A DNA stretch of 64,000 bases from Dehalococcoidia bacterium (GTDB lineage Bacteria; Chloroflexota; Dehalococcoidia; Lucifugimonadales; CAZENU01), in the NCBI GenBank assembly GCA_965222125.1, contig CBDCTC010000002.1, forward strand, positions 41,270-105,269, given 5' to 3'. The notes beneath the pieces are model-generated. The model searched no databases. It saw only the letters and a program-made list of their open reading frames with translations, and was not told the origin of the DNA. How positions within the stretch are numbered: position 1 is the stretch's first letter; each line of letters opens with the position of its first letter. The position numbers and the translations under genes were made by a program. This document shows, in pieces, positions 553 through 42,010 of the stretch.

Positions 553-702
553 CTTAGTCCTCCTCGTCAATCCATACCCGGGGGCGAGCTGCGCAGCCGC
601 TATCGCCGTGGAGCTTCGCCGCTGCCGGGTAGCTCACCCTATGGTATCAGCGCCGCGCAAGCCGCGCCCGCCCTAACCCGCTACCGGGCTCCGGCAATGC
701 CG

Positions 703-32936: not shown

Positions 32937-33011
32937 TCGAGGGGTCCTCCGTCGAAGAAGCCGGGGCGACTATAGATTAGGCCGCCCCCGCTGTCAACGG
33001 AACCGCAGCTA

Positions 33012-34898
33012 CCCAAATCCACCGGCTAAATGAGTGGGAGACCTCGTTGGAGCCCGACGCGATGCGGGCTAAGATGGTTGTTGAGCAAACGAACCGATCA
33101 CCAACGAGGTGCATCTATTATGAAGCAAGGAGTTCTGCCGTTCCAGTACGTCGAGGAGAGAAGTTCGACAGGTATGACGGCCATGGCGGGTCTGGGAGTC
33201 TACCTGGACCTGTTCGAGGCAGTTGGCCTGAGAGAGTCGGTGGACCGTCACGTGGGCGTGAGGAGTGAGGCGCAGGGCTGGACGGACAGCCAGGTGGTGA
33301 CCTCGTTGATAGTGCTGAACCTGGTGGGCGGGGAGTCGGTGGGCGACCTTCGGATACTGGAGAAGGATGCTGGGTTGGGTAGGATGTTGAGTATGGCCGA
33401 GCGTCACGGGATGCCCGGTGGAGAGCGAAGGGCGCTTCGGAGGAGGTGGCGCACCGAGCGTCGTCGGAATGTCCCATCGCCTTCGTCAGTGTTCCGCTAC
33501 CTGTCTAGCTTCCATGACGAACAGGAGGAGGCCAAGCGTGAGCCCCACAAGGCGTTCATACCCGCTGCGACCGATGCTCTGGTTGGTCTGAGGAGGGTGA
33601 ATGCGGAGACGATAGGCTTCGTTCAGAGCCATGCTGGGCATAAGCAAGCAACGTTGGATATGGACGCGACGCTGATCGAGACCCACAAGAGGCAGGCGAG
33701 CTATTGCTACGACAAGTACAGGGCGTATCAGCCTCTGACGACGTACTGGGCCGAAGCCGACCAGATTGTGCACTCGGAGTTTCGAGACGGCAACGTACCT
33801 GCGGGCCACCAGCAGCTTCGGGTGCTGCGGGAGTCATTGGAGTATCTGCCCAGAGGAGTCGAAGAGGTGATGCTGAGGTCTGACACGGCGGGGTACCAGC
33901 GGGAGTTGCTGCGGTACTGCGCGGAGGGTAGAGACGAGCGGTTCGGGGTGATTGAGTTCGCCGTCGGCGCCGATGTTACGCCGGAGTTGAAGCGGGCGAT
34001 CGACTCTGTGCCGGAGGGCGATTGGCATGAACTCAAACAGAGTGTGGTGGCCCATGAGTTGGAAACGGGACAACAGTGGGCGGAGGTGAACTTCGTACCC
34101 AACTGGATAGGTCACAAAAAGAGTAGTCCTGAGTACCGTTTCATAGCGATCAGAAAGTTGCTGCGCAAGCCGCCTATGCCAGGGATGGAGGCTCACCTGC
34201 AGTTGTCGCTCCCCGTCATGGAGATTCGGGGCGAGGGTGGTACAAGGTCACAGCATTGGTGACCAACCGTGCTCTCCCAGGGGACAAGCTGATCGGGTGG
34301 TACAGGCAGAGGTGTGGGAAGGGTGAGGAGGTGCACGGGGTGCTCAAGGAAGACCTCGCTGGCGGTCGGCTGCCGTCGGGTCTGTTCGGGGCCAATGCCG
34401 CGTGGTGGGCGATAGCGGTACTGGCGTTCAACCCCGTATGGGGCTACGGGGCAGCTCTCAACTCGGCGCTGAAGCGCTTGGCGTTGGGCGCCGAGTGGCT
34501 AAGAAGACGGCTCAAGGCCGTGCGATTCGGCCTGATCGGGCCTGCCGGACGAGTCGTGCATCATGCCAGGAGCATGATCATCCGCCTGCCCAGAGGACAC
34601 CCTTCATACAACCTGCTACTCAAAGCTCGCGCCAAGATGCTGGCACTACCAGCCCCACCGTAGTTCGACCTTCCCACAACCAAATCATCTCGACCCGAAG
34701 CGGCCGGATCCCGTCCGGTGGATGCGCCTCGCCATCCTTCTACCCCGGAAGGGCCGCAGACGCCCTCAACATCCCCAAACGGCCTTCCCAGACCACCTCG
34801 ACACGCATCTCCGAACGCCCAGACGGCCCCCTAACCGCCCCGACATCCGTCGAAGTGCCACCAACAACCGCACACATCAATCTGCCGGTGGATTTGGG
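33012..34898 (+). mobile_element. IS1380-family element
   Basis: TIR CCCAAATCCACCGGC (33012-33026) / GCCGGTGGATTTGGG (34884-34898). Confidence 0.88.
33120..34663 (+). pseudogene. IS1380-family transposase, frameshift near 34230 and 24-bp in-frame insertion at 34433-34456
   Basis: TLDMDAT, YQPL, RSDTAG; WYKV..VTN continues in another frame; compared with the 9233 copy. Confidence 0.85.
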
Positions 34899-34949
34899 CC
34901 GCGCACTCACCATTGACGGTATTAATGTCACTCGTCACTATAGTGGACG

Positions 34950-35228
34950 GTGTATCGATTCAGGGACAACGATGCCGAGCGTCTCTTCAACGGACTGCCG
35001 GTCCGTCGCCTGCCCCCTCACCTTCAGCGACGGGCGCAAATGAGGTTGCAGCGCGTCGTCGCTGCAGCGGCGCTAACCGACCTTGGGGTGCCGCCCTCAC
35101 ATCGACTTGAGGCGTTGCGAGGAGACCGTAGGGGCCAATACAGCATACTCGTCAACGATCAATGGCGTATATGCTCTAGTTGGACAGATCGAGGCGCTAT
35201 GGACGTCGAGGTGACCGACTACCACTGA
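34950..35228 (+). CDS. higB: HigB toxin (RelE/ParE superfamily)
   Basis: DL.VPPS.RLEAL.GDR.GQYSI.VNDQWRIC..W....DVE..DYH. Confidence 0.88.
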   Translation: MYRFRDNDAERLFNGLPVRRLPPHLQRRAQMRLQRVVAAAALTDLGVPPSHRLEALRGDRRGQYSILVNDQWRICSSWTDRGAMDVEVTDYH

Positions 35229-35239
35229 GGAGGATCCGA

Positions 35240-35545
35240 ATGGCCGCAGGTGCGCCGATCCACCCTGGAGAGCATCTAGCCGAGATCTTGGATGAGCTCG
35301 GTATCAGCCAGTACCGTCTGGCTAGGACGATTGGCGTGCCGCCGATACGTGTCAACGACATCGTTCGGCGTCGCAGATCCGTCACGGCAGACACTGCGCT
35401 GCGAATCGGCCAAGCTCTAGGCACCACACCGGAGTTCTGGTTCAACCTCCAGCGGATGTACGATCTGGAAATCGCCCGGGCCTCCACCGACACCAGCTCT
35501 ATCAAGCCGCTCGTCACGGCGTCCCAAAGCGAAGCACCAGCCTGA
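35240..35545 (+). CDS. higA: HigA antitoxin (HTH-XRE)
   Basis: PIHPGE.L, SQY.LA, R..VTADTALR, FW.NLQ..YDL. Confidence 0.9.
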   Translation: MAAGAPIHPGEHLAEILDELGISQYRLARTIGVPPIRVNDIVRRRRSVTADTALRIGQALGTTPEFWFNLQRMYDLEIARASTDTSSIKPLVTASQSEAPA

Positions 35546-35620
35546 GGCGCAGACTCGAAACCAGTTGATGCCACCGCCTGACATAGTCTTGAGTATCGGG
35601 GACTGACGCCAAGGGGTACG

Positions 35621-35697
35621 TGGGGTGAGCGAAGGGATTCGAACCCTCGATCTCCAGGGCCACAACCTGGCGCCTTAACCTCTTGGCCACGCTCACC
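35621..35697 (-). tRNA. tRNA-His(GTG)
   Basis: G-1 GTGAGCG...CGCTCACCCCA, CCAGG-TTGTGGC-CCTGG anticodon arm, GGTTCGAATCC. Confidence 0.95.
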
Positions 35698-35915
35698 GCG
35701 CCACTCATCGAGTCTAGCATCGGCGAGAAGCGTGGGTCAAACCGGGGGACGTCCTCTCGAAGGCCCCCACTTCAGGTCCCTCACTTAGCTCGGGACGACA
35801 GATCGAAGGCCGTCCCGGGACTACGCGGGGACCGCTTGTCTACCGGTTGGGGATGAAATCGTGCCGTGGATGGCGCATAATTGGGCCATCCAGCCGTCGG
35901 AGCCGACCACCTGAC

Positions 35916-37343
35916 ATGCTTTCGACCCGCCCCAAGACCAAGATAGTCTGCACCCTCGGGCCCGCTTGCGCGTCCCAGGAGACTGTCGGGGCCCTGGTGC
36001 TCGGCGGGATGAGCGTCGCCCGGATGAACATGTCCCACGGGACGGAGGAGGAGCACGCGCGGGCGATCGAGTACGTCCGGAGAGCCTCCGACCGTCTCGG
36101 CGTGCCGGTCGGCATCATGGTCGACGCACCTGGCGCCAAGTACCGGACCGGGCCGATCGGAGTCGGCGCGCTGAACCTCGAAAACGGCAACCCTCTGACT
36201 CTCACCAGCCGCGACATCGTCGGGTCCCGCACGGCCGTGACGGTAACTCCGCCCGGGATCCACCGCGACGCTGCCGTCGACCGGCCCGTTCTCCTGGACG
36301 ACGGGCGCATCGAGCTTCGCGTCGACAGCGTCGTCGGGACCGACGTTTCCTGCACGGTCGTCCGCGGAGGCAGGCTGACCGAGCGGCGGGGTGTGGCTAC
36401 GCCCGGCAAGGCGCCCACGCAGCACTTTCCCGACGCCGCCGCGACGAGGGCCATCGAGTTCGCGGCCGAGCAGCGGGTGGACATGCTGGCACTGTCGACC
36501 ATCGTCTCCCCGGACGACGTGAGGGCGGCGCGGGAGATCGTCTCCCGAGGCGGTCACGAGCTCGAAATCATCTCGAAGATCGAGCGCACGGAGGCGATAG
36601 CCCGCTTCGACGAGATACTCGCCGTCAGCGACGCGGTCATGGTAGCCAGAGGCGACATGGGCGTCGAGGTGGCGTTGGCGAGGGTCCCGGTGATCCAGAA
36701 GGACCTGATCGCCCGAAGCAACGACAGCGGCAAGCCTGTCATCACGGCGACGCAGATGCTGGAGTCGATGGTCGAATCGCCGGTGCCGACCCGGGCCGAG
36801 GTCACGGATGTCGCGAACGCGGTCTTCGATGGCACGGACGCGATCATGCTCTCCGGCGAGACATCGGTGGGCCGGTACCCCGTCGAGGCGGTCAAGGTGA
36901 TGGCCGAGGTAGCCGTCGAGGCGGAGGCCGCCCTACCCTACGAGCATATGATCGTGGAGAAGCGCCGCCACCTGGTCCCGCAGACCGACGACGCGATCAG
37001 CTACAACGCCTGCCAGACGGCGCAGCAGATCGGTGCAGGCCTGATAGTGGCTTTCACCGAGTCCGGCAGCACCGCGGGACGGGTCTCCCGCTACCGCCCG
37101 ATGGCCCCGATACTCGCCCTCACGCCCAGCGACGCCGTCCTTCGCCGCCTGACGCTGAGGTGGGGCGTCACGCCGATAACCATCCCGCGGATCCAGAATG
37201 TGGAAGACTTCTTTGCCATCGGCGAGCGGATGGCGAAGCAGGAGGCTGGACTCGAGCCCGGTAGCCTCGTCGTTCTCGTCGCCGGCCTGCCGATCGGGGT
37301 GAAGGGCGGCACCAACCTCCTTCGCGTGCTCACCGTCACTTAG
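35916..37343 (+). CDS. pyk: Pyruvate kinase
   Basis: TKIVCTLGPA, ARMNMSHG, KIE, MVARGDMG, TATQMLESM, PTRAE, MLSGET. Confidence 0.96.
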   Translation: MLSTRPKTKIVCTLGPACASQETVGALVLGGMSVARMNMSHGTEEEHARAIEYVRRASDRLGVPVGIMVDAPGAKYRTGPIGVGALNLENGNPLTLTSRDIVGSRTAVTVTPPGIHRDAAVDRPVLLDDGRIELRVDSVVGTDVSCTVVRGGRLTERRGVATPGKAPTQHFPDAAATRAIEFAAEQRVDMLALSTIVSPDDVRAAREIVSRGGHELEIISKIERTEAIARFDEILAVSDAVMVARGDMGVEVALARVPVIQKDLIARSNDSGKPVITATQMLESMVESPVPTRAEVTDVANAVFDGTDAIMLSGETSVGRYPVEAVKVMAEVAVEAEAALPYEHMIVEKRRHLVPQTDDAISYNACQTAQQIGAGLIVAFTESGSTAGRVSRYRPMAPILALTPSDAVLRRLTLRWGVTPITIPRIQNVEDFFAIGERMAKQEAGLEPGSLVVLVAGLPIGVKGGTNLLRVLTVT

Positions 37344-37348
37344 CTGCC

Positions 37349-39535
37349 ATGAAGCTCTACGACTCACTGACAAAGCAGCTGAAGCTCGTCGAGCCGGCCG
37401 AGCCCGGAGTCGTCAAGATGTACACCTGCGGCCCCACCGTGTACCGCGACGCCCACCTGGGCAACCTGCGGTCGTACCTGATGGCCGATTGGATCCGGCG
37501 CACGATGGAGATTCAGGGCGTCCGGGTACTGCACGTCAAGAACATCACCGACGTCGGCCACATGCGCCAGGAGGTGCTCGAACAGGGCGAGGACAAGGTG
37601 ATCGCGGCGGCGATCGCGGCGGGAAAGACGCCAGGGGAGATCGCCGAGACGTACACCGACCGATTCCTGCGCGACGAACAGACGCTGAACATCACCCCGG
37701 CGGAACATTTCCCCAGGGCCACGGCCCACGTCGACGAGATGCTGGAGATCGTCGAGGACCTCGTGGCGAAGGGCCTCGCCTACGAGGTCGAAGGCAACGT
37801 CTACTACAGCGTTTCGGCGTCGCCGAGCTACGGCGCGCTGTCGGGCAACATACAGGAGGAAGCGCTGCTCGAGGCCGTCCGAATCGAGGCCGACCCGCTC
37901 AAGCGAGACGTGCGCGACTTCACGCTGTGGAAGAGGGCCGAGCCTGGACGCGAGCTGAAGTGGCCCAGCCGATGGGGTGACGGCTTCCCCGGCTGGCACA
38001 TCGAATGCTCGGCCATGTCGATCAAGTACCTGGGCCCGCGGTTCGACATCCACACCGGCGGGGTCGACAACATCTTCCCTCACCACGAAGGCGAAATCGC
38101 CCAGAGCGACGGTTTCACCGGGGGGCCGGTCGTCAGCACCTGGGTGCACGGTCAACACCTGCTCGCCGACGGCGTGAAGATGGCCAAGTCGACGGGCAAC
38201 TCGTTCATCCTGTCCGACATCGAGAGCCGCGGCATCGACCCGCTCGCCTTCCGCTACCTGTGCCTCACGACGAACTACAAGACCAGGCTGAACTTCACGT
38301 TCACCTCGCTGCGGGCGGCGCAGCGCGCCCTCCACCGCCTGCGCAACCGCGTCTGGGAGTGGGAGTCATCCGCGGACGCCGGCGTACCTGACGACGGCGC
38401 GGTCGCCGAGTGGCACGGGCGCCTTCTGGAGCGGGCCAATGACAATCTCGACATGCCAGGCGCTCTGGCCCTGACGTGGGAGGCCGCGCACTCGGACCTG
38501 CCCTCAGCCGACAAGCTGGCCGTCATTCGCGACTTCGATAGGCTGCTCGGCCTCGGTCTCGCCGACATGCGAGATCGCTACCGGGTGCCCGACGAGACCA
38601 TCGCCGCGGTTGCCCGCAGGGCGGGTCTCCGCGAGGAGCGCCGTTACACCGAGGCCGACGAGGAGAGAAACGGCCTCGACCACGCGGGCTTCGTCGTCGA
38701 GGACGGTCGAACGGCGACGCGGGTGCGTCCCAAGACCGACTGGGAGAAGCGGCAGGAGGCCTGGCAGACGGTCTCCGCCGCCGCCGAGGTGCGGTCCCTG
38801 CACGAACAGGTCGACGCGGCCGACTTCACCTTCGCGGTCGTCGCCCACAACTACGTCGACGACGTCCGCCGCTGCATCGAGTCGGCGGTGCGCTGGTCGG
38901 AGGACCGCGACGTCGAGGTCGTTGCCGTCGACAACGGCTCGACGGACGGGACCGAGGAGTGGCTGGAGCGGTCGGCCTCCGAGGACGCCAGGATAAGGGT
39001 GATACACACCGACCACGCCCTCGGGGAGGGCGCGGCGCGCAACATTGCGCTCAAGCAGTGCCGCGGACGCACCATAGTGATGCTCGATACGAGCGTCGAG
39101 GTCACCGGCGACCTGCTCGGCCCGCTCGAGCGCATCCTCGACGACGATAGCGTGGGAGTCGCGGGGCCCTTCGGGCTCCGCACCGGCGATCTGCACCACT
39201 TCCACGAGGGCGAGGGCGAGGCCGGCGACATGGATGCAATGCAGGCCTACTGCTTCGCGTTCCGCCGCCGCCGGCTGCGCGACGTTGGCTTCATGCGCGA
39301 GACCTTCAGGTTCTATCGCAACCTGGACCTCGACTACAGCTTCCACTTCAAGGACCGGGGCTATCGCATCGTCGCCGATCCGACGCTGCCCGTCCGGCTG
39401 CACGAGCACCGGGTCTGGAGCGAGTTGGCCGAGGGCGAGCGGGACGAGCTGAGCCGCAAGAACTACCGGCGGTTTCTCGACAAGTGGGGCGACCGCACCG
39501 ACCTGCTGGTCAGCAACCGGCGCATCGATCGATAG
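37349..39535 (+). CDS. cysS: Cysteine--tRNA ligase fused to a C-terminal GT2 glycosyltransferase domain
   Basis: YTCGPTVY, HLGN, PGWHIECSAM, DIHTGG.D..FPHHE, KMAKS, anticodon helix; then VVAVDNGSTDG, G..ARN..L...RG, DLDYS. Confidence 0.88.
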   Translation: MKLYDSLTKQLKLVEPAEPGVVKMYTCGPTVYRDAHLGNLRSYLMADWIRRTMEIQGVRVLHVKNITDVGHMRQEVLEQGEDKVIAAAIAAGKTPGEIAETYTDRFLRDEQTLNITPAEHFPRATAHVDEMLEIVEDLVAKGLAYEVEGNVYYSVSASPSYGALSGNIQEEALLEAVRIEADPLKRDVRDFTLWKRAEPGRELKWPSRWGDGFPGWHIECSAMSIKYLGPRFDIHTGGVDNIFPHHEGEIAQSDGFTGGPVVSTWVHGQHLLADGVKMAKSTGNSFILSDIESRGIDPLAFRYLCLTTNYKTRLNFTFTSLRAAQRALHRLRNRVWEWESSADAGVPDDGAVAEWHGRLLERANDNLDMPGALALTWEAAHSDLPSADKLAVIRDFDRLLGLGLADMRDRYRVPDETIAAVARRAGLREERRYTEADEERNGLDHAGFVVEDGRTATRVRPKTDWEKRQEAWQTVSAAAEVRSLHEQVDAADFTFAVVAHNYVDDVRRCIESAVRWSEDRDVEVVAVDNGSTDGTEEWLERSASEDARIRVIHTDHALGEGAARNIALKQCRGRTIVMLDTSVEVTGDLLGPLERILDDDSVGVAGPFGLRTGDLHHFHEGEGEAGDMDAMQAYCFAFRRRRLRDVGFMRETFRFYRNLDLDYSFHFKDRGYRIVADPTLPVRLHEHRVWSELAEGERDELSRKNYRRFLDKWGDRTDLLVSNRRIDR

Positions 39536-39642
39536 CCTTCGTTTCACATGAATCTTGCGCGGCGGGCGTGTATAATCTCGTCGCGCGTCAGATCGCGACA
39601 AGGTCCCCACTCTACCCGCCAATTGGCACGATCCATACGTCA

Positions 39643-39735
39643 CATAGCAGGTCTCGCTTCGCCCGTCATTGTCCTCGCGTGGGGCGGTACAAGACGGCGC
39701 GCCGGCCTGATGTTCAAAGGCGTCTCCCCATGACC
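39643..39735 (-). ncRNA. yybP-ykoY (Mn2+) riboswitch-like element, antisense to the adjacent transporter
   Basis: Minus strand reads GGGGAGACGC...AACATC...hairpin...GCGAGACC, like the GGGGAGUAGC...GCGAGACC hallmark; not tested with a covariance model. Confidence 0.45.
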
Positions 39736-39755
39736 AACGCGGATTCGGAGTTGTC

Positions 39756-40973
39756 GTGTCGCCGTTAGAGGCCATCCGCCACCGGTCGCTTCTGTGGATG
39801 TGGGTATTCGCGCTGTTCGCAGTCCCGGGGTTTCTCGTACGGTTCACCGACGTCCATATCGAACCCCCGGTCCTCGCCCTGATATTCGGGATCGGCATCG
39901 TAGGCGGGGCCTTCCTGCTCTCCTGGGCCGCCGAGGTGGCGCAGATCGACATCTCCGCGTCGCTGGCCATTGCCGTGCTGGCGTTGATCGCGATTCTGCC
40001 CGAGTACTCCATCGAGGCGGTGTTGGCCTGGAAGGCCGGCGCGAGCTTCGACCTCGTGACCCGCGAAGTCACGGAACGCATGGAGCTCGTCGCCGCCAAC
40101 GTCACCGGCGCCAACCGGCTGCTCGTCGGCCTCGGTTGGCCTGTGGTCATCCTGATCTTCTGGCTGAAGAGCCGCAACCCGCTCGACCTCCGGGGCAAGA
40201 TCTCCCTGGAGCTGATAGTGCTTTTGCTGGCCACGCTGGTAACCTTCTCGATCTTCTTCATGGGGCAGGTACACCTGGTGGTGGCGGGGGCGCTGATCTG
40301 CATGTACCTCGTCTACCTGTGGATCAGCTCGACCCACGACACCGAGGAGCCTGAGCTGGCAGGCCCGGCGGCGACGATAGGCTCGCTGCCCACGCACGCT
40401 AGACGTATCGCCGTCCTCACGCTGTTCGTCTACTCGGCCGTGATAATAGTCATGGCCGCCGAGCCGTTCGTCGAGGCGCTCGTGGAGACGGGCGAGAAGC
40501 TGAACATTGACGAGTTCATCCTCATCCAGTGGATCGCTCCGCTGGCATCGGAGTCCCCGGAGATCATCGTGGCCGCGCTCTTCAGCCTGAGGGCCAACCC
40601 GCAGGCGGGGCTCACCACGCTGATCTCGGCCGAGGTCAACCAGATGACCCTGCTCATCGGCAGCATGGTCCTGATCTTCAGCCTGTCCGCGGGCCAGGCC
40701 CTGAACTTCCCCCTGGAGGAGCGGCAGACGATCGAATTCCTGCTGACCTCCGCGGTATCGGGGTTCGCCCTGGCGCTCATGCTGCCCCGGGTGGTCGGCT
40801 GGAAGACCGGGGCCGTGCTGCTGGGCCTGTTCCTCGTCCACCTGCCGTTTGTGGACCCCGAGCAGCGGCGCCTGTTCACCTACCTGTATCTGACACTGAC
40901 CGTCGTAGTCACAGCCTGGAACTGGCGGATCCTGCGCGACATGGTCGGCCGATTCCGAACCCGTTCGGCGTAA
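39756..40973 (+). CDS. Ca2+:cation antiporter (CaCA / Na_Ca_ex) family protein
   Basis: Alpha repeats A.LPEY...AANVTGAN and PLASESPE...S..NQ.T; about 11 TM helices. Confidence 0.88.
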   Translation: MSPLEAIRHRSLLWMWVFALFAVPGFLVRFTDVHIEPPVLALIFGIGIVGGAFLLSWAAEVAQIDISASLAIAVLALIAILPEYSIEAVLAWKAGASFDLVTREVTERMELVAANVTGANRLLVGLGWPVVILIFWLKSRNPLDLRGKISLELIVLLLATLVTFSIFFMGQVHLVVAGALICMYLVYLWISSTHDTEEPELAGPAATIGSLPTHARRIAVLTLFVYSAVIIVMAAEPFVEALVETGEKLNIDEFILIQWIAPLASESPEIIVAALFSLRANPQAGLTTLISAEVNQMTLLIGSMVLIFSLSAGQALNFPLEERQTIEFLLTSAVSGFALALMLPRVVGWKTGAVLLGLFLVHLPFVDPEQRRLFTYLYLTLTVVVTAWNWRILRDMVGRFRTRSA

Positions 40974-41119
40974 CGACGTCAGCCCTCCAGCGGAGTTGCG
41001 GCTTCAGAGGATCCGGGGTCGGACCCGCTGGCGTTCCTCGTTCACCGATTGCACGCCCTTTGCTACACTGTGGCCGGGATGGGATGGCCGCCTGTCGGGC
41101 GGAGAGTTGAGGCGACGAG

Positions 41120-41482
41120 GTGACCAGGGTGCTGACAAAAGAGCACGCGCAAACGGCGCGAGAGTTTCTGCACGCCGGGGCGCGTGAGCTCGCATCCGGG
41201 GACGAACTGCAGGGATCGGAGAAGATGTGGGGAGCGGCGTCCCACGCGATCATGGCGGTCGCCCAGCAAAGGAGTTGGCCGTATGGGAACCATCGTGCGA
41301 TGGTCAACGCCGCCCGCCGCATAGCGGACGAACTGAACGATGACGGCCTGCGGGCCGGGCTGGCGGCGGCCCAGCACTTCCACGCCAACTTCTACCACGG
41401 TTTCATGGAGAATGAGGACGTGGAGCCCAACGCCGAGCTCGTGCGCCGGTTCGTCGACCGGATGCTGACGCTCTCCGCGTGA
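41120..41482 (+). CDS. PaREP1/HEPN-like small protein
   Basis: GD.LQ.SEK.WGAA.....AVA..R.W...H, A...H.NFY. Confidence 0.7.
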   Translation: MTRVLTKEHAQTAREFLHAGARELASGDELQGSEKMWGAASHAIMAVAQQRSWPYGNHRAMVNAARRIADELNDDGLRAGLAAAQHFHANFYHGFMENEDVEPNAELVRRFVDRMLTLSA

Positions 41483-41502
41483 CGGTACGAGAACTCAGTG
41501 AC

Positions 41503-41887
41503 ATGGGACAGCTCAGCGTAACGATAGAGATCGGCGACGTCGGCGCGGAGAACTTGGAGGAGATGGAGGCGCTGGTAGACACCGGCGCGACCACTACCGT
41601 GATTCCGGGTTCCGCGCTGAGGCGGCTCGGCATCTCCCCCGCCCAAGCGTGAGACGTTCGAGTACGCCGGCGGCGAGCGCGTCGAACTGGACATGGCCGA
41701 GGCGAGGGCGCGAGTTGCCGGCCGCGAAACGACGACGTGGGTCATCTTCGGCGAGGAAGGAACGTCCGCACTGCTGGGGGCGTACACGCTGGAAGGCGTG
41801 TTCCTGGCCGTCGACCCTTATGGCCAGAAGCTCATCCCCGTGCGTGGACTCTTGAAGACGTCCGCGCATCCGTTGTCGCGGGGTTAG
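41503..41887 (+). pseudogene. Clan AA (retropepsin-like) aspartyl protease, +1 frameshift at ~41641-41644
   Basis: ALVDTGAT in the first frame, LLG..TLEG..L.VDP in the second; extra C in a C-rich tract. Confidence 0.75.
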
Positions 41888-42010
41888 TCTCAGGCCAACC
41901 GCCGCGGGCGGCCGAAGCGCTTTTCCCGCACGTTCCTCGACCACCGAACCGGGTGACATACCCCGTCTCCCCGTCAATTCGGTGCGACGGACGGACGAGC
42001 CCGGAGTCTT

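Follow-up and report, generated by a model that had tools for sequence, protein, structure and literature searches.

A widely conserved fusion of cysteinyl-tRNA synthetase and a GT-A glycosyltransferase in Chloroflexota, with a possible role at tRNA-Cys

Paralogues and fusions of aminoacyl-tRNA synthetases (MshC, LysX, ErdS and GluQRS) have repeatedly led to chemistry of the activated amino acid or of the tRNA beyond translation. The gene considered here, which joins a complete cysteinyl-tRNA synthetase (CysRS) to a glycosyltransferase (GT) of family GT2, lies in a stretch of 64,000 nucleotides from a Dehalococcoidia bacterium (assembly GCA_965222125.1, contig CBDCTC010000002.1, positions 41,270 to 105,269 of the forward strand), which in its whole length is called the window below. 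The closest described architectures are LysX, a lysyl-tRNA synthetase joined to MprF, and ErdS, an aspartyl-tRNA synthetase joined to DUF2156, in both of which a complete synthetase is fused to a transferase and channels aminoacyl-tRNA. Their transferase domains are acyl or aminoacyl transferases of GNAT-like fold and act on lipids. The fusion of the window follows the same synthetase-transferase logic and is likened to them by architecture alone; its partner is a GT-A glycosyltransferase placed at the anticodon end. The known kind is thus an aminoacyl-tRNA synthetase fused to a transferase, and the bolder possibility is a new class, that of bacterial tRNA glycosyltransferases.

Each half of the protein has its own described relatives. 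Compared with the bacterial class I CysRSs (Escherichia coli CysS, 1LI5/1U0B; Borrelia CysS, 3SP1), residues 1-462 are a full CysRS with all motifs and domains, and in our tree they group with stand-alone CysRSs of their subtype; the fusion differs by about 265 extra C-terminal residues and by coexisting, as an additional copy, with a canonical cysS that belongs to the other subtype. MshC (PDB 3C8Z, 8HFM; NCBIfam model TIGR03447) resembles it as a CysRS paralogue that uses cysteinyl-adenylate chemistry and links cysteine to a sugar, but according to PMC2922099 MshC has no anticodon-binding domain and is tRNA-independent, whereas the fusion has this domain in conserved form. Compared with GT2 enzymes of the COG1216 type (SpsA 1H7L, TarS/TarP, RmlT, PcManGT 6YV7 and ppGalNAc-T), the C-terminal half has the same GT-A fold (Z 17-20) and shares the layout of a VDNGS-type motif, Dxx, FRR...G...D, the acid pair of Y-R-x-x-D-x-D and a late histidine, motifs to which we presumptively assign their usual roles. 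The fusion departs from these enzymes in having serine for the second Asp of the DxD motif and an invariant Glu four residues after the first Asp, and it adds a conserved C-terminal helix, ER..LS(K/R)(K/R)N(F/Y).RFL, and the CysRS anticodon-binding domain (CysS_C) on the N-terminal side. Finally, glycosylation in a tRNA anticodon loop does exist, since the vertebrate enzymes QTGAL and QTMAN put a sugar on an anticodon-loop nucleoside (PMC12518689). These enzymes are eukaryotic, lack a synthetase-derived anticodon-binding domain and act on queuosine-34 of tRNA-Tyr and tRNA-Asp, whereas tRNA-Cys(GCA) carries no queuosine; they are taken here as a functional precedent alone. We take QTGAL to belong to GT2.

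Conservation of the fusion and its two halves

We found that the fusion is real and widely conserved. An earlier note, made from the letters of the window, had described one uninterrupted open reading frame (ORF) of 728 amino acids starting 5 nucleotides past the stop codon of the pyruvate kinase gene pyk, and had named absence from related genomes, a chimeric join or a missed stop codon as observations that would undo the finding. The ORF listing and the sequence agree with this description, and none of the three was observed. When 5.8 billion proteins were searched by word index, at least 120 relatives of full length came up (about 728 amino acids, 67-95% identity), the named ones of which come from Chloroflexi/SAR202 bins and are annotated only as 'cysteine--tRNA ligase'. 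The full-length fusion was present in 24 of the 41 genomes of the window's order, with identities of 43-100% and in one case (G018) with an in-frame TAA, and a twenty-fifth genome held a fragment of it at a contig end. The examined loci contained 93 long-form ORFs, corresponding to 85 unique sequences. In a collection of species-representative genomes, 80 named loci (about 63 long and 13 short) came mostly from bins of Dehalococcoidia, Anaerolineae, Ktedonobacteria, Chloroflexia, Limnocylindria and Thermoflexales, with two labelled Actinomycetota and one Steroidobacteraceae.

Contigs assembled from sequencing runs gave the same picture at the junction. A contig of run X1 was identical to the window across 38161-39700, and in two RNA-library runs of a separate study single contigs of an about 96%-identical strain spanned 37538-39700 and 37544-39501. 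The RNA-library contigs are no proof of transcription; they come from an independent study, reach from the catalytic domain through the GT domain, bridge the junction and exclude a chimeric join. For an assembly chimera or a missed stop codon no supporting evidence was found, and the relatives, the genomes of the order, the long-form ORFs and the bridging contigs together refute this explanation, leaving it a vanishingly small chance. Apparent joints in the read lay-out and depth peaks at conserved CysRS motifs were traced to CysRS contigs of other organisms matching at 90% likeness and were discarded. No description of the CysRS-GT2 fusion or of the CysS_C-GT family was found in the full-text literature, a search that covered neither supplements nor subscription-only journals, and none in the accessible parts of PMC7278568, PMC2922099 and PMC5424206. 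The system, which the earlier note had taken to be undescribed, is therefore apparently unstudied.

The synthetase half was recognized along its whole length. The NCBIfam cysS equivalog TIGR00435 matched with 367 bits (cut-off 340) over model positions 1-463 of 466, while the best-scoring NCBIfam model, PRK14536, reached 399.9 bits and stayed under its own cut-off of 780; Pfam placed tRNA-synt_1e at residues 15-325 (291 bits). The MshC model TIGR03447 gave 218 bits, below its cut-off of 485, and the anticodon-binding domain is present, so the protein falls outside MshC as that model defines it. In the full-length AlphaFold2 model (predicted local distance difference test, pLDDT, 86.7; predicted template modelling score, pTM, 0.86) residues 1-462 superposed on E. 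coli CysRS from the tRNA-Cys complex (1u0b_B residues 2-461; Z 38.0, 432 aligned residues, root-mean-square deviation (rmsd) 3.0 A), and the stretches of low confidence (74-81, 170-180 and 278-281) were loops, including the KMAKS loop. Across the 85 unique long forms, which are 42-95% identical to the window's protein, CGPTVY, H-x-G-N, NITDVGH, GFPGWHIEC, GGVD..FPHHE.E.AQ and KM.KS were invariant or nearly so, and no other part of the fusion came up to the catalytic domain in mean column identity (0.75). Both class I signatures are in place, HLGN where Borrelia CysRS (3sp1) has HIGN, and KMAKS; among 52 aligned fusions H36, G38, N39, K277 and M278 were conserved in at least 90%, and of the residues of the zinc/cysteine site, which align with the motifs of solved CysRSs, C27, C220, H245 and H246 were invariant and E249 was kept in at least 90%. 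The corresponding zinc site of E. coli CysRS we take to be C28, C209, H234 and E238. Because the motifs are near-invariant and the uncertain parts of the model are only loops, we infer that the CysRS half is catalytically active. Judged by their conservation, both halves of the fusion are shown to be under purifying selection.

Most of the structural claims made from the letters alone thus proved sound: the complete class I CysRS with its zinc ligands, HLGN and KMAKS, the GT-A fold domain of about 240 amino acids, the genuine and conserved fusion of the two, and the motifs named for it, all of which were located as described, with the DxD position reading D580-T581-S582. The 'anticodon-binding helix' was right as to the region and too narrow as to its nature, for the alignment to 1u0b_B residues 2-461 identifies it as a whole anticodon-binding domain and not just a helix.

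The search for a second canonical cysS, suggested together with these claims, gave a positive answer. The genome of the window (3.75 Mb, 95.9% complete) holds a separate canonical cysS on another contig (493 bits). A separate CysRS was also found in 24 of the 25 genomes of the order with a full-length or fragmentary fusion (only G028, which is 81% complete, showed none), and a canonical full-length CysRS was kept in all five near-complete long-form genomes from other Chloroflexota families. In a tree built by maximum likelihood from the first 400 residues (60 rows), all 44 CysRS parts of sampled fusions lay on one side of a branch with support 98/96, their sisters were stand-alone full-length CysRSs from three other genomes, and the canonical CysRS of the window's genome fell in the other major clade (100/100). 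Because of this last placement, the fusion is seen to descend from a second CysRS subtype, and it may have had a single origin, to judge from the tree. The stand-alone CysRSs of Chloroflexota themselves form two deeply separated subtypes (tree loci L001 and L112-L121); the window's order uses one of them, and the other, from which the fusion arose, is that of G151, G178 and G074. The window's genome has one tRNA-Cys(GCA) gene with U73 and A37, and no second tRNA-Cys isoacceptor was found in it; the GCA anticodon and U73 are the strongest CysRS identity elements according to PMC9976931. Presumably the housekeeping supply of Cys-tRNA is left to the canonical CysRS and both enzymes share the single tRNA-Cys. 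Among the 46 tRNAs of this genome there is also a tRNA-SeC(TCA).

A truncated, MshC-like CysRS paralogue was absent from the window's genome, while nine of ten other near-complete Chloroflexota genomes had a truncated CysRS-like gene and the tenth (G420) had a divergent full-length second CysRS. Four truncated copies were examined; they are 394-475 amino acids long, match the whole MshC model at 356-397 bits against the cut-off of 485, and group together with support 100/99 within the 'canonical' CysRS subtype, that is, in the other subtype than the fusion. Possibly they ligate cysteine in the making of a mycothiol-like thiol that is still uncharacterised. The idea that they are partners of the short forms described below was rejected, because they are MshC-like, belong to the other CysRS subtype and are adjacent only at 10-19 kb in two genomes.

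The anticodon-binding domain is the part on which the proposed function turns. Conservation was counted in 85 long forms and in 55 short forms that lack the catalytic domain. R424, R428, D437, R440 and D452 were kept in 96-100% of the long forms, although CysS_C as a whole averages only 0.44 identity, and in 85-91% of the short forms, where most misses were alignment gaps; with G447 included, the set was kept in 87-100% and 85-91%, respectively. At these five positions Borrelia CysRS (3sp1) has R, K, D, R and D, and the alignment offset to 1li5 gives R427, D436, R439 and D451 as E. coli equivalents. A PDB sequence search with residues 340-474 alone matched only Borrelia CysRS, and a literature search for CysRS anticodon-contact residues turned up only tRNA identity elements. 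The distance from D452 to R508 was 50-57 residues in 84 of the 85 long forms, the extra length of the forms with 785-880 amino acids being mostly a C-terminal tail, and a separate model of residues 400-728 was confident (pLDDT 95, pTM 0.85). Because the linker length is fixed and this model is confident, the anticodon-binding domain and the GT appear to be rigidly coupled.

As for the GT domain, Pfam Glycos_transf_2 matched residues 496-655 with 81.9 bits (cut-off 23.3), and Foldseek and an all-against-all structural search gave as nearest folds PcManGT (6yv7; Z 20.4, 218 aligned, rmsd 3.3), GalNAc-T1 (20.2), the chondroitin polymerase K4CP (19.9), SpsA (1h7l; 18.4) and TarS/TarP (17.2-17.4). 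Conserved residues, with percentages for long and short forms, were R508 (100 and 96), D580 (95 and 85), E584 (95 and 98), R640 (100 in both), Y656 and R657 (100 and 95), D660 (100 in both, 85/85 and 55/55), H685 (96 and 98), H687 (100 and 93), S702 (100 and 95) and N705 (100 and 96). The classical uridine-binding Asp, D528, was retained by 75 of 85 long and 26 of 55 short forms, and S582 replaced the second Asp of DxD in 76 of 85 and 39 of 55, respectively; the canonical DxD metal motif is thus absent (D580-T-S582), and D580 and E584 are conserved instead. In other GT-A enzymes a metal ligand can be provided by a late His or by the residue four positions past the first Asp, and by analogy a metal site of D580, E584 and His is plausible here. 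By the same kind of analogy we assume that D528 would bind the nucleotide and D660 would be the catalytic base. Taken by sequence and model, the domain looks active and not degenerate. The worry that DTS marks a dead enzyme was not borne out, since D580, E584, D660, H685 and H687 are conserved throughout the family; the proposed check for nucleotide-sugar-binding residues gave a divided result, with D580, E584 and D660 kept and D528 retained in fewer than half of the short forms.

The CysS_C-glycosyltransferase unit and its genomic context

A phmmer search with residues 470-728 against 1.84 billion cluster representatives (E <= 1e-30) gave 127 proteins, many of which, besides the fusions of about 730 amino acids, were only 300-345 amino acids long. 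These short forms start with M or V and consist of about 55-70 N-terminal residues, the linker and the same GT domain. Pfam CysS_C (PF23493) followed by Glycos_transf_2 was seen in all ten short proteins scanned, CysS_C being above its cut-off in eight. One of them, WP_220194942.1 from the cultured Ktedonospora formicarum (Ktedonobacterium), sits on a 4.44-Mb contig, which shows the short form to be a genuine gene and complete. In the ESM Atlas, 16 of the 30 top matches to residues 400-728 were in clusters carrying both families, with scores of 0.98-0.99, and the automatic name there is 'Cysteinyl-tRNA ligase anticodon binding/Glycosyl transferase family 2'. Residues 400-728 of the window's protein align with the 55 short forms and share with them R508, D580, E584, R640, D660, H685, H687, S702 and N705; by its domain order, these residues and the C-terminal LS(K/R)(K/R)N helix the protein belongs to the same 'CysS_C + GT2' family. 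Some further phmmer matches (P0147, P0165, P0178, P0180 and others) are giant proteins of 1000-3800 amino acids with 3-8 tandem GT2-like stretches, 25-37% identical to the GT domain.

In an even sample of Chloroflexota, residues 400-728 were matched in 105 of 401 genomes (E <= 1e-15; the count includes the unpublished genome G383), in frames of either about 720-930 or about 300-460 amino acids; by hand count the alignment starts inside CysS_C in about 91 of the 105, and at least 11 genomes hold both lengths. In the phylum labelled Actinomycetota, 64 of 301 sampled genomes matched (the unpublished G526, G532 and G592 included), none of them in a frame of fusion length. A GT-only form of 220-270 amino acids, which starts with the linker and still has the C-terminal LS(K/R)(K/R)N helix, was clear in three loci, from G497, G554 and G582. 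The sequences indicate that CysS_C accompanies the GT in most members of the family, not in all, and that CysS_C plus this GT is the unit that recurs most often. The neighbourhood of the GT-only loci differs, with genes that by eye resemble dapA, FtsK and acyl-CoA dehydrogenase. One locus of G666 holds a 541-residue ORF whose N-terminal part is alpha/beta hydrolase-like, followed by the GT family; here the match comes in two pieces, which may reflect a frameshift or another fusion.

The context of the fusion was examined in 16 loci, 8 kb on each side. A MetRS-like gene recurred in 7 of 16, pyk in 5 of 16 (upstream), a polyprenyl synthase in 5 of 16, an rsmI-like gene in 5 of 16 and a Na/Ca exchanger in 4 of 16. 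No conserved sugar, deacetylase or thiol gene was found in these loci, and as this is just housekeeping synteny, operon context was rejected as a functional clue.

The surroundings of the short forms were of several kinds. In 5 of the 18 loci of family f88, a second full-length CysRS of the fusion's subtype is convergent to the short GT gene at a distance of 0.6-1 kb; it forms a long branch, has an insertion between catalytic domain and helical bundle, and ends in its own CysS_C tail. The idea of a split gene, with this neighbour as the truncated catalytic half of the fusion, was rejected since translation shows a full-length CysRS with CysS_C. As read from these sequences, the f88 arrangement is one that retains the association of CysRS and GT without fusing them. 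In L133 the CysRS match comes in pieces, as after a frameshift. A DinB-like gene lies 30 nucleotides upstream of the short form in four loci, and these four loci, all of the one family, were too few to be used as a clue. In 18 loci labelled Actinomycetota, the short gene follows a gene for a cyclic-nucleotide-monophosphate-binding protein (8 loci) and faces FtsH (14 loci), beyond which, about 2 kb from the short gene, lie sigH in 13, rsrA in 10 and an LmbE-type deacetylase gene in 7 of the 18. The rsrA model, 'mycothiol system anti-sigma-R factor' (TIGR03988), scored 64.5 bits against a cut-off of 62.5; these genes are outside the operon of the short gene, with the convergent FtsH between, and the genomes carrying them may be close kin. 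The short forms of Chloroflexota (13 loci) and the GT-only forms showed no informative pattern of neighbours, ORF calls in such GC-rich DNA being noisy.

Possible functions of the fusion

Based on domain content and models, we tentatively propose a glycosyltransferase docked on tRNA-Cys, here coupled to a working second CysRS, a reading that we consider quite possible though still short of probable. Such a protein would consist of a second, catalytically intact CysRS whose CysS_C is connected to a GT-A glycosyltransferase by a linker that does not vary in length. The anticodon-binding domain would dock the GT onto tRNA-Cys, and the GT would use a nucleotide sugar and a metal, with D580, E584, H685 and H687 as candidate ligands and D660 as candidate base. 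Its target would be tRNA-Cys itself, with the anticodon arm or its vicinity as the most plausible site because the GT is tethered at the anticodon end; alternatively it would be the cysteinyl group carried by tRNA-Cys. In the long form, charging and sugar transfer would be united on one polypeptide, the substrate being perhaps the tRNA that is being charged or Cys-tRNA-Cys. A GT docked on tRNA-Cys is the simplest proposal because CysS_C is common to the long and short forms, its presumed contact residues are more conserved than the rest of it and its distance to the GT-A site is fixed. The more general claim, that the protein founds a large bacterial family of tRNA-Cys-specific RNA glycosyltransferases in which the GT borrows the anticodon-binding domain of a synthetase and the long form is coupled to a dedicated CysRS, we regard as doubtful, if a real possibility. 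The earlier note had offered tRNA glycosylation, Cys-tRNA-dependent chemistry and the synthesis of a glycosylated thiol. Among these the tRNA-linked functions are favoured and a tRNA-independent, MshC-like thiol ligase is disfavoured, because the anticodon domain is kept, its presumed contact residues are conserved at 96-100% and it stays with the GT in most stand-alone relatives.

Several observations weigh against the docked glycosyltransferase. We know of no glycosylated tRNA-Cys nucleoside in bacteria, although no search was aimed at one, and the tRNA-Cys of the window's genome is ordinary-looking. That R428, D437, R440 and D452 are anticodon contacts is our assumption, made from the 1U0B complex and the alignment offset. 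The Pfam model PF23493, which detects the CysS_C of relatives, misses the copy in the window's own protein. CysS_C is moreover not obligatory: GT-only relatives account for 9 of the 64 Actinomycetota-labelled positives by hand count, and among 62 phmmer proteins of 230-470 amino acids without KMSKS a regular expression found a CysS_C-like pattern in 34 and none in 28, some of these being fragments. The core of the GT has a net negative charge (about -8 on average), with only the C-terminal helices slightly basic, and this is mildly unlike a broad RNA-binding surface. The patchy retention of D528 in the short forms together with the serine at the second Asp of DxD, and the thiol-themed neighbours of some short forms (DinB-like in f88; sigH, rsrA and the deacetylase in the second phylum), count on the same side.

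These neighbours lead to the alternative of cysteine-sugar or low-molecular-weight thiol synthesis, in which the GT would make a glycoside and CysRS-activated cysteine (as cysteinyl adenylate or Cys-tRNA-Cys) would be joined to it, in a pathway resembling those of mycothiol or bacillithiol in which tRNA is used or at least the tRNA-binding part is retained. It is rather unlikely in our estimate and still the most substantial of the alternatives. The model superposes on MshC over residues 1-404 (Z 35.5), and MshC is a CysRS paralogue that ligates cysteine to GlcN-inositol (glucosamine-inositol), as PMC2922099 describes. The window's genome has six PIG-L/LmbE-type deacetylase genes, none of them near the fusion, and since it has no copy of the MshC-like paralogue that is so common in other Chloroflexota, the fusion could fill that role. 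Set against this are the lack of any conserved sugar, deacetylase or thiol gene beside the fusion, its low score with the MshC model, the position of sigH and rsrA outside the operon of the short gene in genomes that may be close kin, and the existence of short forms with no Cys-activating domain at all; a tRNA-independent enzyme would also have no reason to keep its anticodon-contact residues. To our knowledge, moreover, the known thiol pathways use GT4 enzymes of the GT-B fold, not GT2. The protein may instead be an ordinary second CysRS carrying a GT2 whose substrate has nothing to do with tRNA, such as a glycan of the envelope or a compatible solute; in variants of this explanation the tRNA-binding domain regulates or senses the charging of tRNA-Cys, or the fusion is mechanistically meaningless. 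The housekeeping neighbours, the GT-only relatives, the acidic GT core and the glycan- and protein-modifying nature of the nearest GT-A structures are consistent with it. We judge it unlikely, for it can hardly explain why an anticodon-binding domain of about 55 residues is retained alone with the GT in two phyla and at a fixed linker, the fusion sequence showed no feature of a membrane-spanning or secreted protein, and a meaningless fusion is not expected to persist across the divergence seen within a single clade of the tree. That the GT is no longer an enzyme and now serves a specialised CysRS, for instance one for particular stress conditions, as an appendage that binds tRNA or is merely structural, would accord with the altered DxD motif and with the loss of the uridine-binding Asp in about half of the short forms; but a coherent polar set at the GT-A active-site positions is conserved in long and short forms, and the short and GT-only forms have no synthetase to assist, which makes this a very improbable reading.

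The CysS_C + GT module occurs in about a quarter of the sampled Chloroflexota and a fifth of the sampled genomes of a second phylum, under database names that are just 'cysteine--tRNA ligase' or 'GT2 family protein', and two or three genes that differ in function share the annotation 'cysS' in such genomes. Should tRNA-Cys or Cys-tRNA-Cys be the substrate of the GT, RNA glycosylation would be extended to bacteria, tRNA glycosylation would be seen there for the first time, and so would a new route from synthetase parts to tRNA-modifying enzymes. If a cysteine-sugar compound is made instead, it would reveal the thiol chemistry that is missing for the abundant Chloroflexota of sea and soil.

Coordinates and neighbouring genes

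Table 1. Features of the fusion gene, of its surroundings in the window and of related loci. Positions are those of the window, except where a locus (L) is named.
Feature	Residues	Position	Strand	Basis or remark
CysRS-GT2 fusion, whole ORF	1-728	37349-39535	+	728 amino acids plus stop, no internal stop
CysRS catalytic domain	1-325	37349-38323	+	Pfam tRNA-synt_1e
Motif CGPT	27-30	37427-37438	+	
Motif HLGN	36-39	37454-37465	+	
Motif WHIECSAM	216-223	37994-38017	+	
Motif FPHHEGE	243-249	38075-38095	+	
Motif KMAKS	277-281	38177-38191	+	
CysRS helical-bundle region	326-405	38324-38563	+	TIGR00435 alignment spans the region; model helices 318-400; aligns with CysRS structures
Anticodon-binding domain CysS_C, with R424, R428, D437, R440, G447, D452	406-462	38564-38734	+	Alignment to 3sp1 and E. 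coli CysRS C-termini
Linker, short helix and conserved S483	463-490	38735-38818	+	D452-to-R508 spacing; pLDDT 82-94 in both models
GT-A / GT2 glycosyltransferase domain	491-728	38819-39532	+	Pfam PF00535, model, Foldseek, conservation
Motif VDNGSTDG	527-534	38927-38950	+	
Motif AARN	562-565			
Motif LDTSVEV	579-585	39083-39103	+	
Motif FYRNLDLDYS	655-664	39311-39340	+	
Motif LHEHR		39398-39412	+	
C-terminal helix LSRKNYRRFL		39449-39478	+	
Pyruvate kinase gene pyk, immediately upstream		35847-37343	+	Pfam PK 333 bits, PK_C 121 bits
tRNA-His(GTG) gene		35621-35696	-	Just upstream of pyk, opposite strand
Two small overlapping ORFs		34950-35228; 35180-35545	+; +	92 and 121 amino acids
Na+/Ca2+ exchanger family membrane protein gene, downstream		39756-40973	+	Pfam Na_Ca_ex, 89.7 bits, two repeats
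Second CysRS of family f88		L130:9550-11688; also L132, L133, L134, L147	- (L130)	Full-length by translation
Truncated CysRS-like genes		L127, L128, L129, L131		Genomes G151, G204, G326, G312, G384, G178, G272, G380, G074
GT-only form		L172:6021-6776	-	No CysS_C
GT-only form		L173:6108-6776	+	No CysS_C
GT-only form		L174:6076-6966	-	No CysS_C
Hydrolase-like ORF with GT family (G666)		L183:6228-7853	-	541 amino acids

The stop codon of pyk (TAG, 37341-37343) is followed by a gap of five nucleotides, CTGCC, and then by the ATG of the fusion at 37349; a search of this gap for a terminator-like site gave none, and the two genes are probably co-transcribed. An Rfam scan of window positions 33000-42000 at the gathering threshold returned only a tRNA, with no T-box or other leader. 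Further upstream, the two small overlapping ORFs resemble by eye a HigB/RelE-type toxin and an XRE-family HigA antitoxin.

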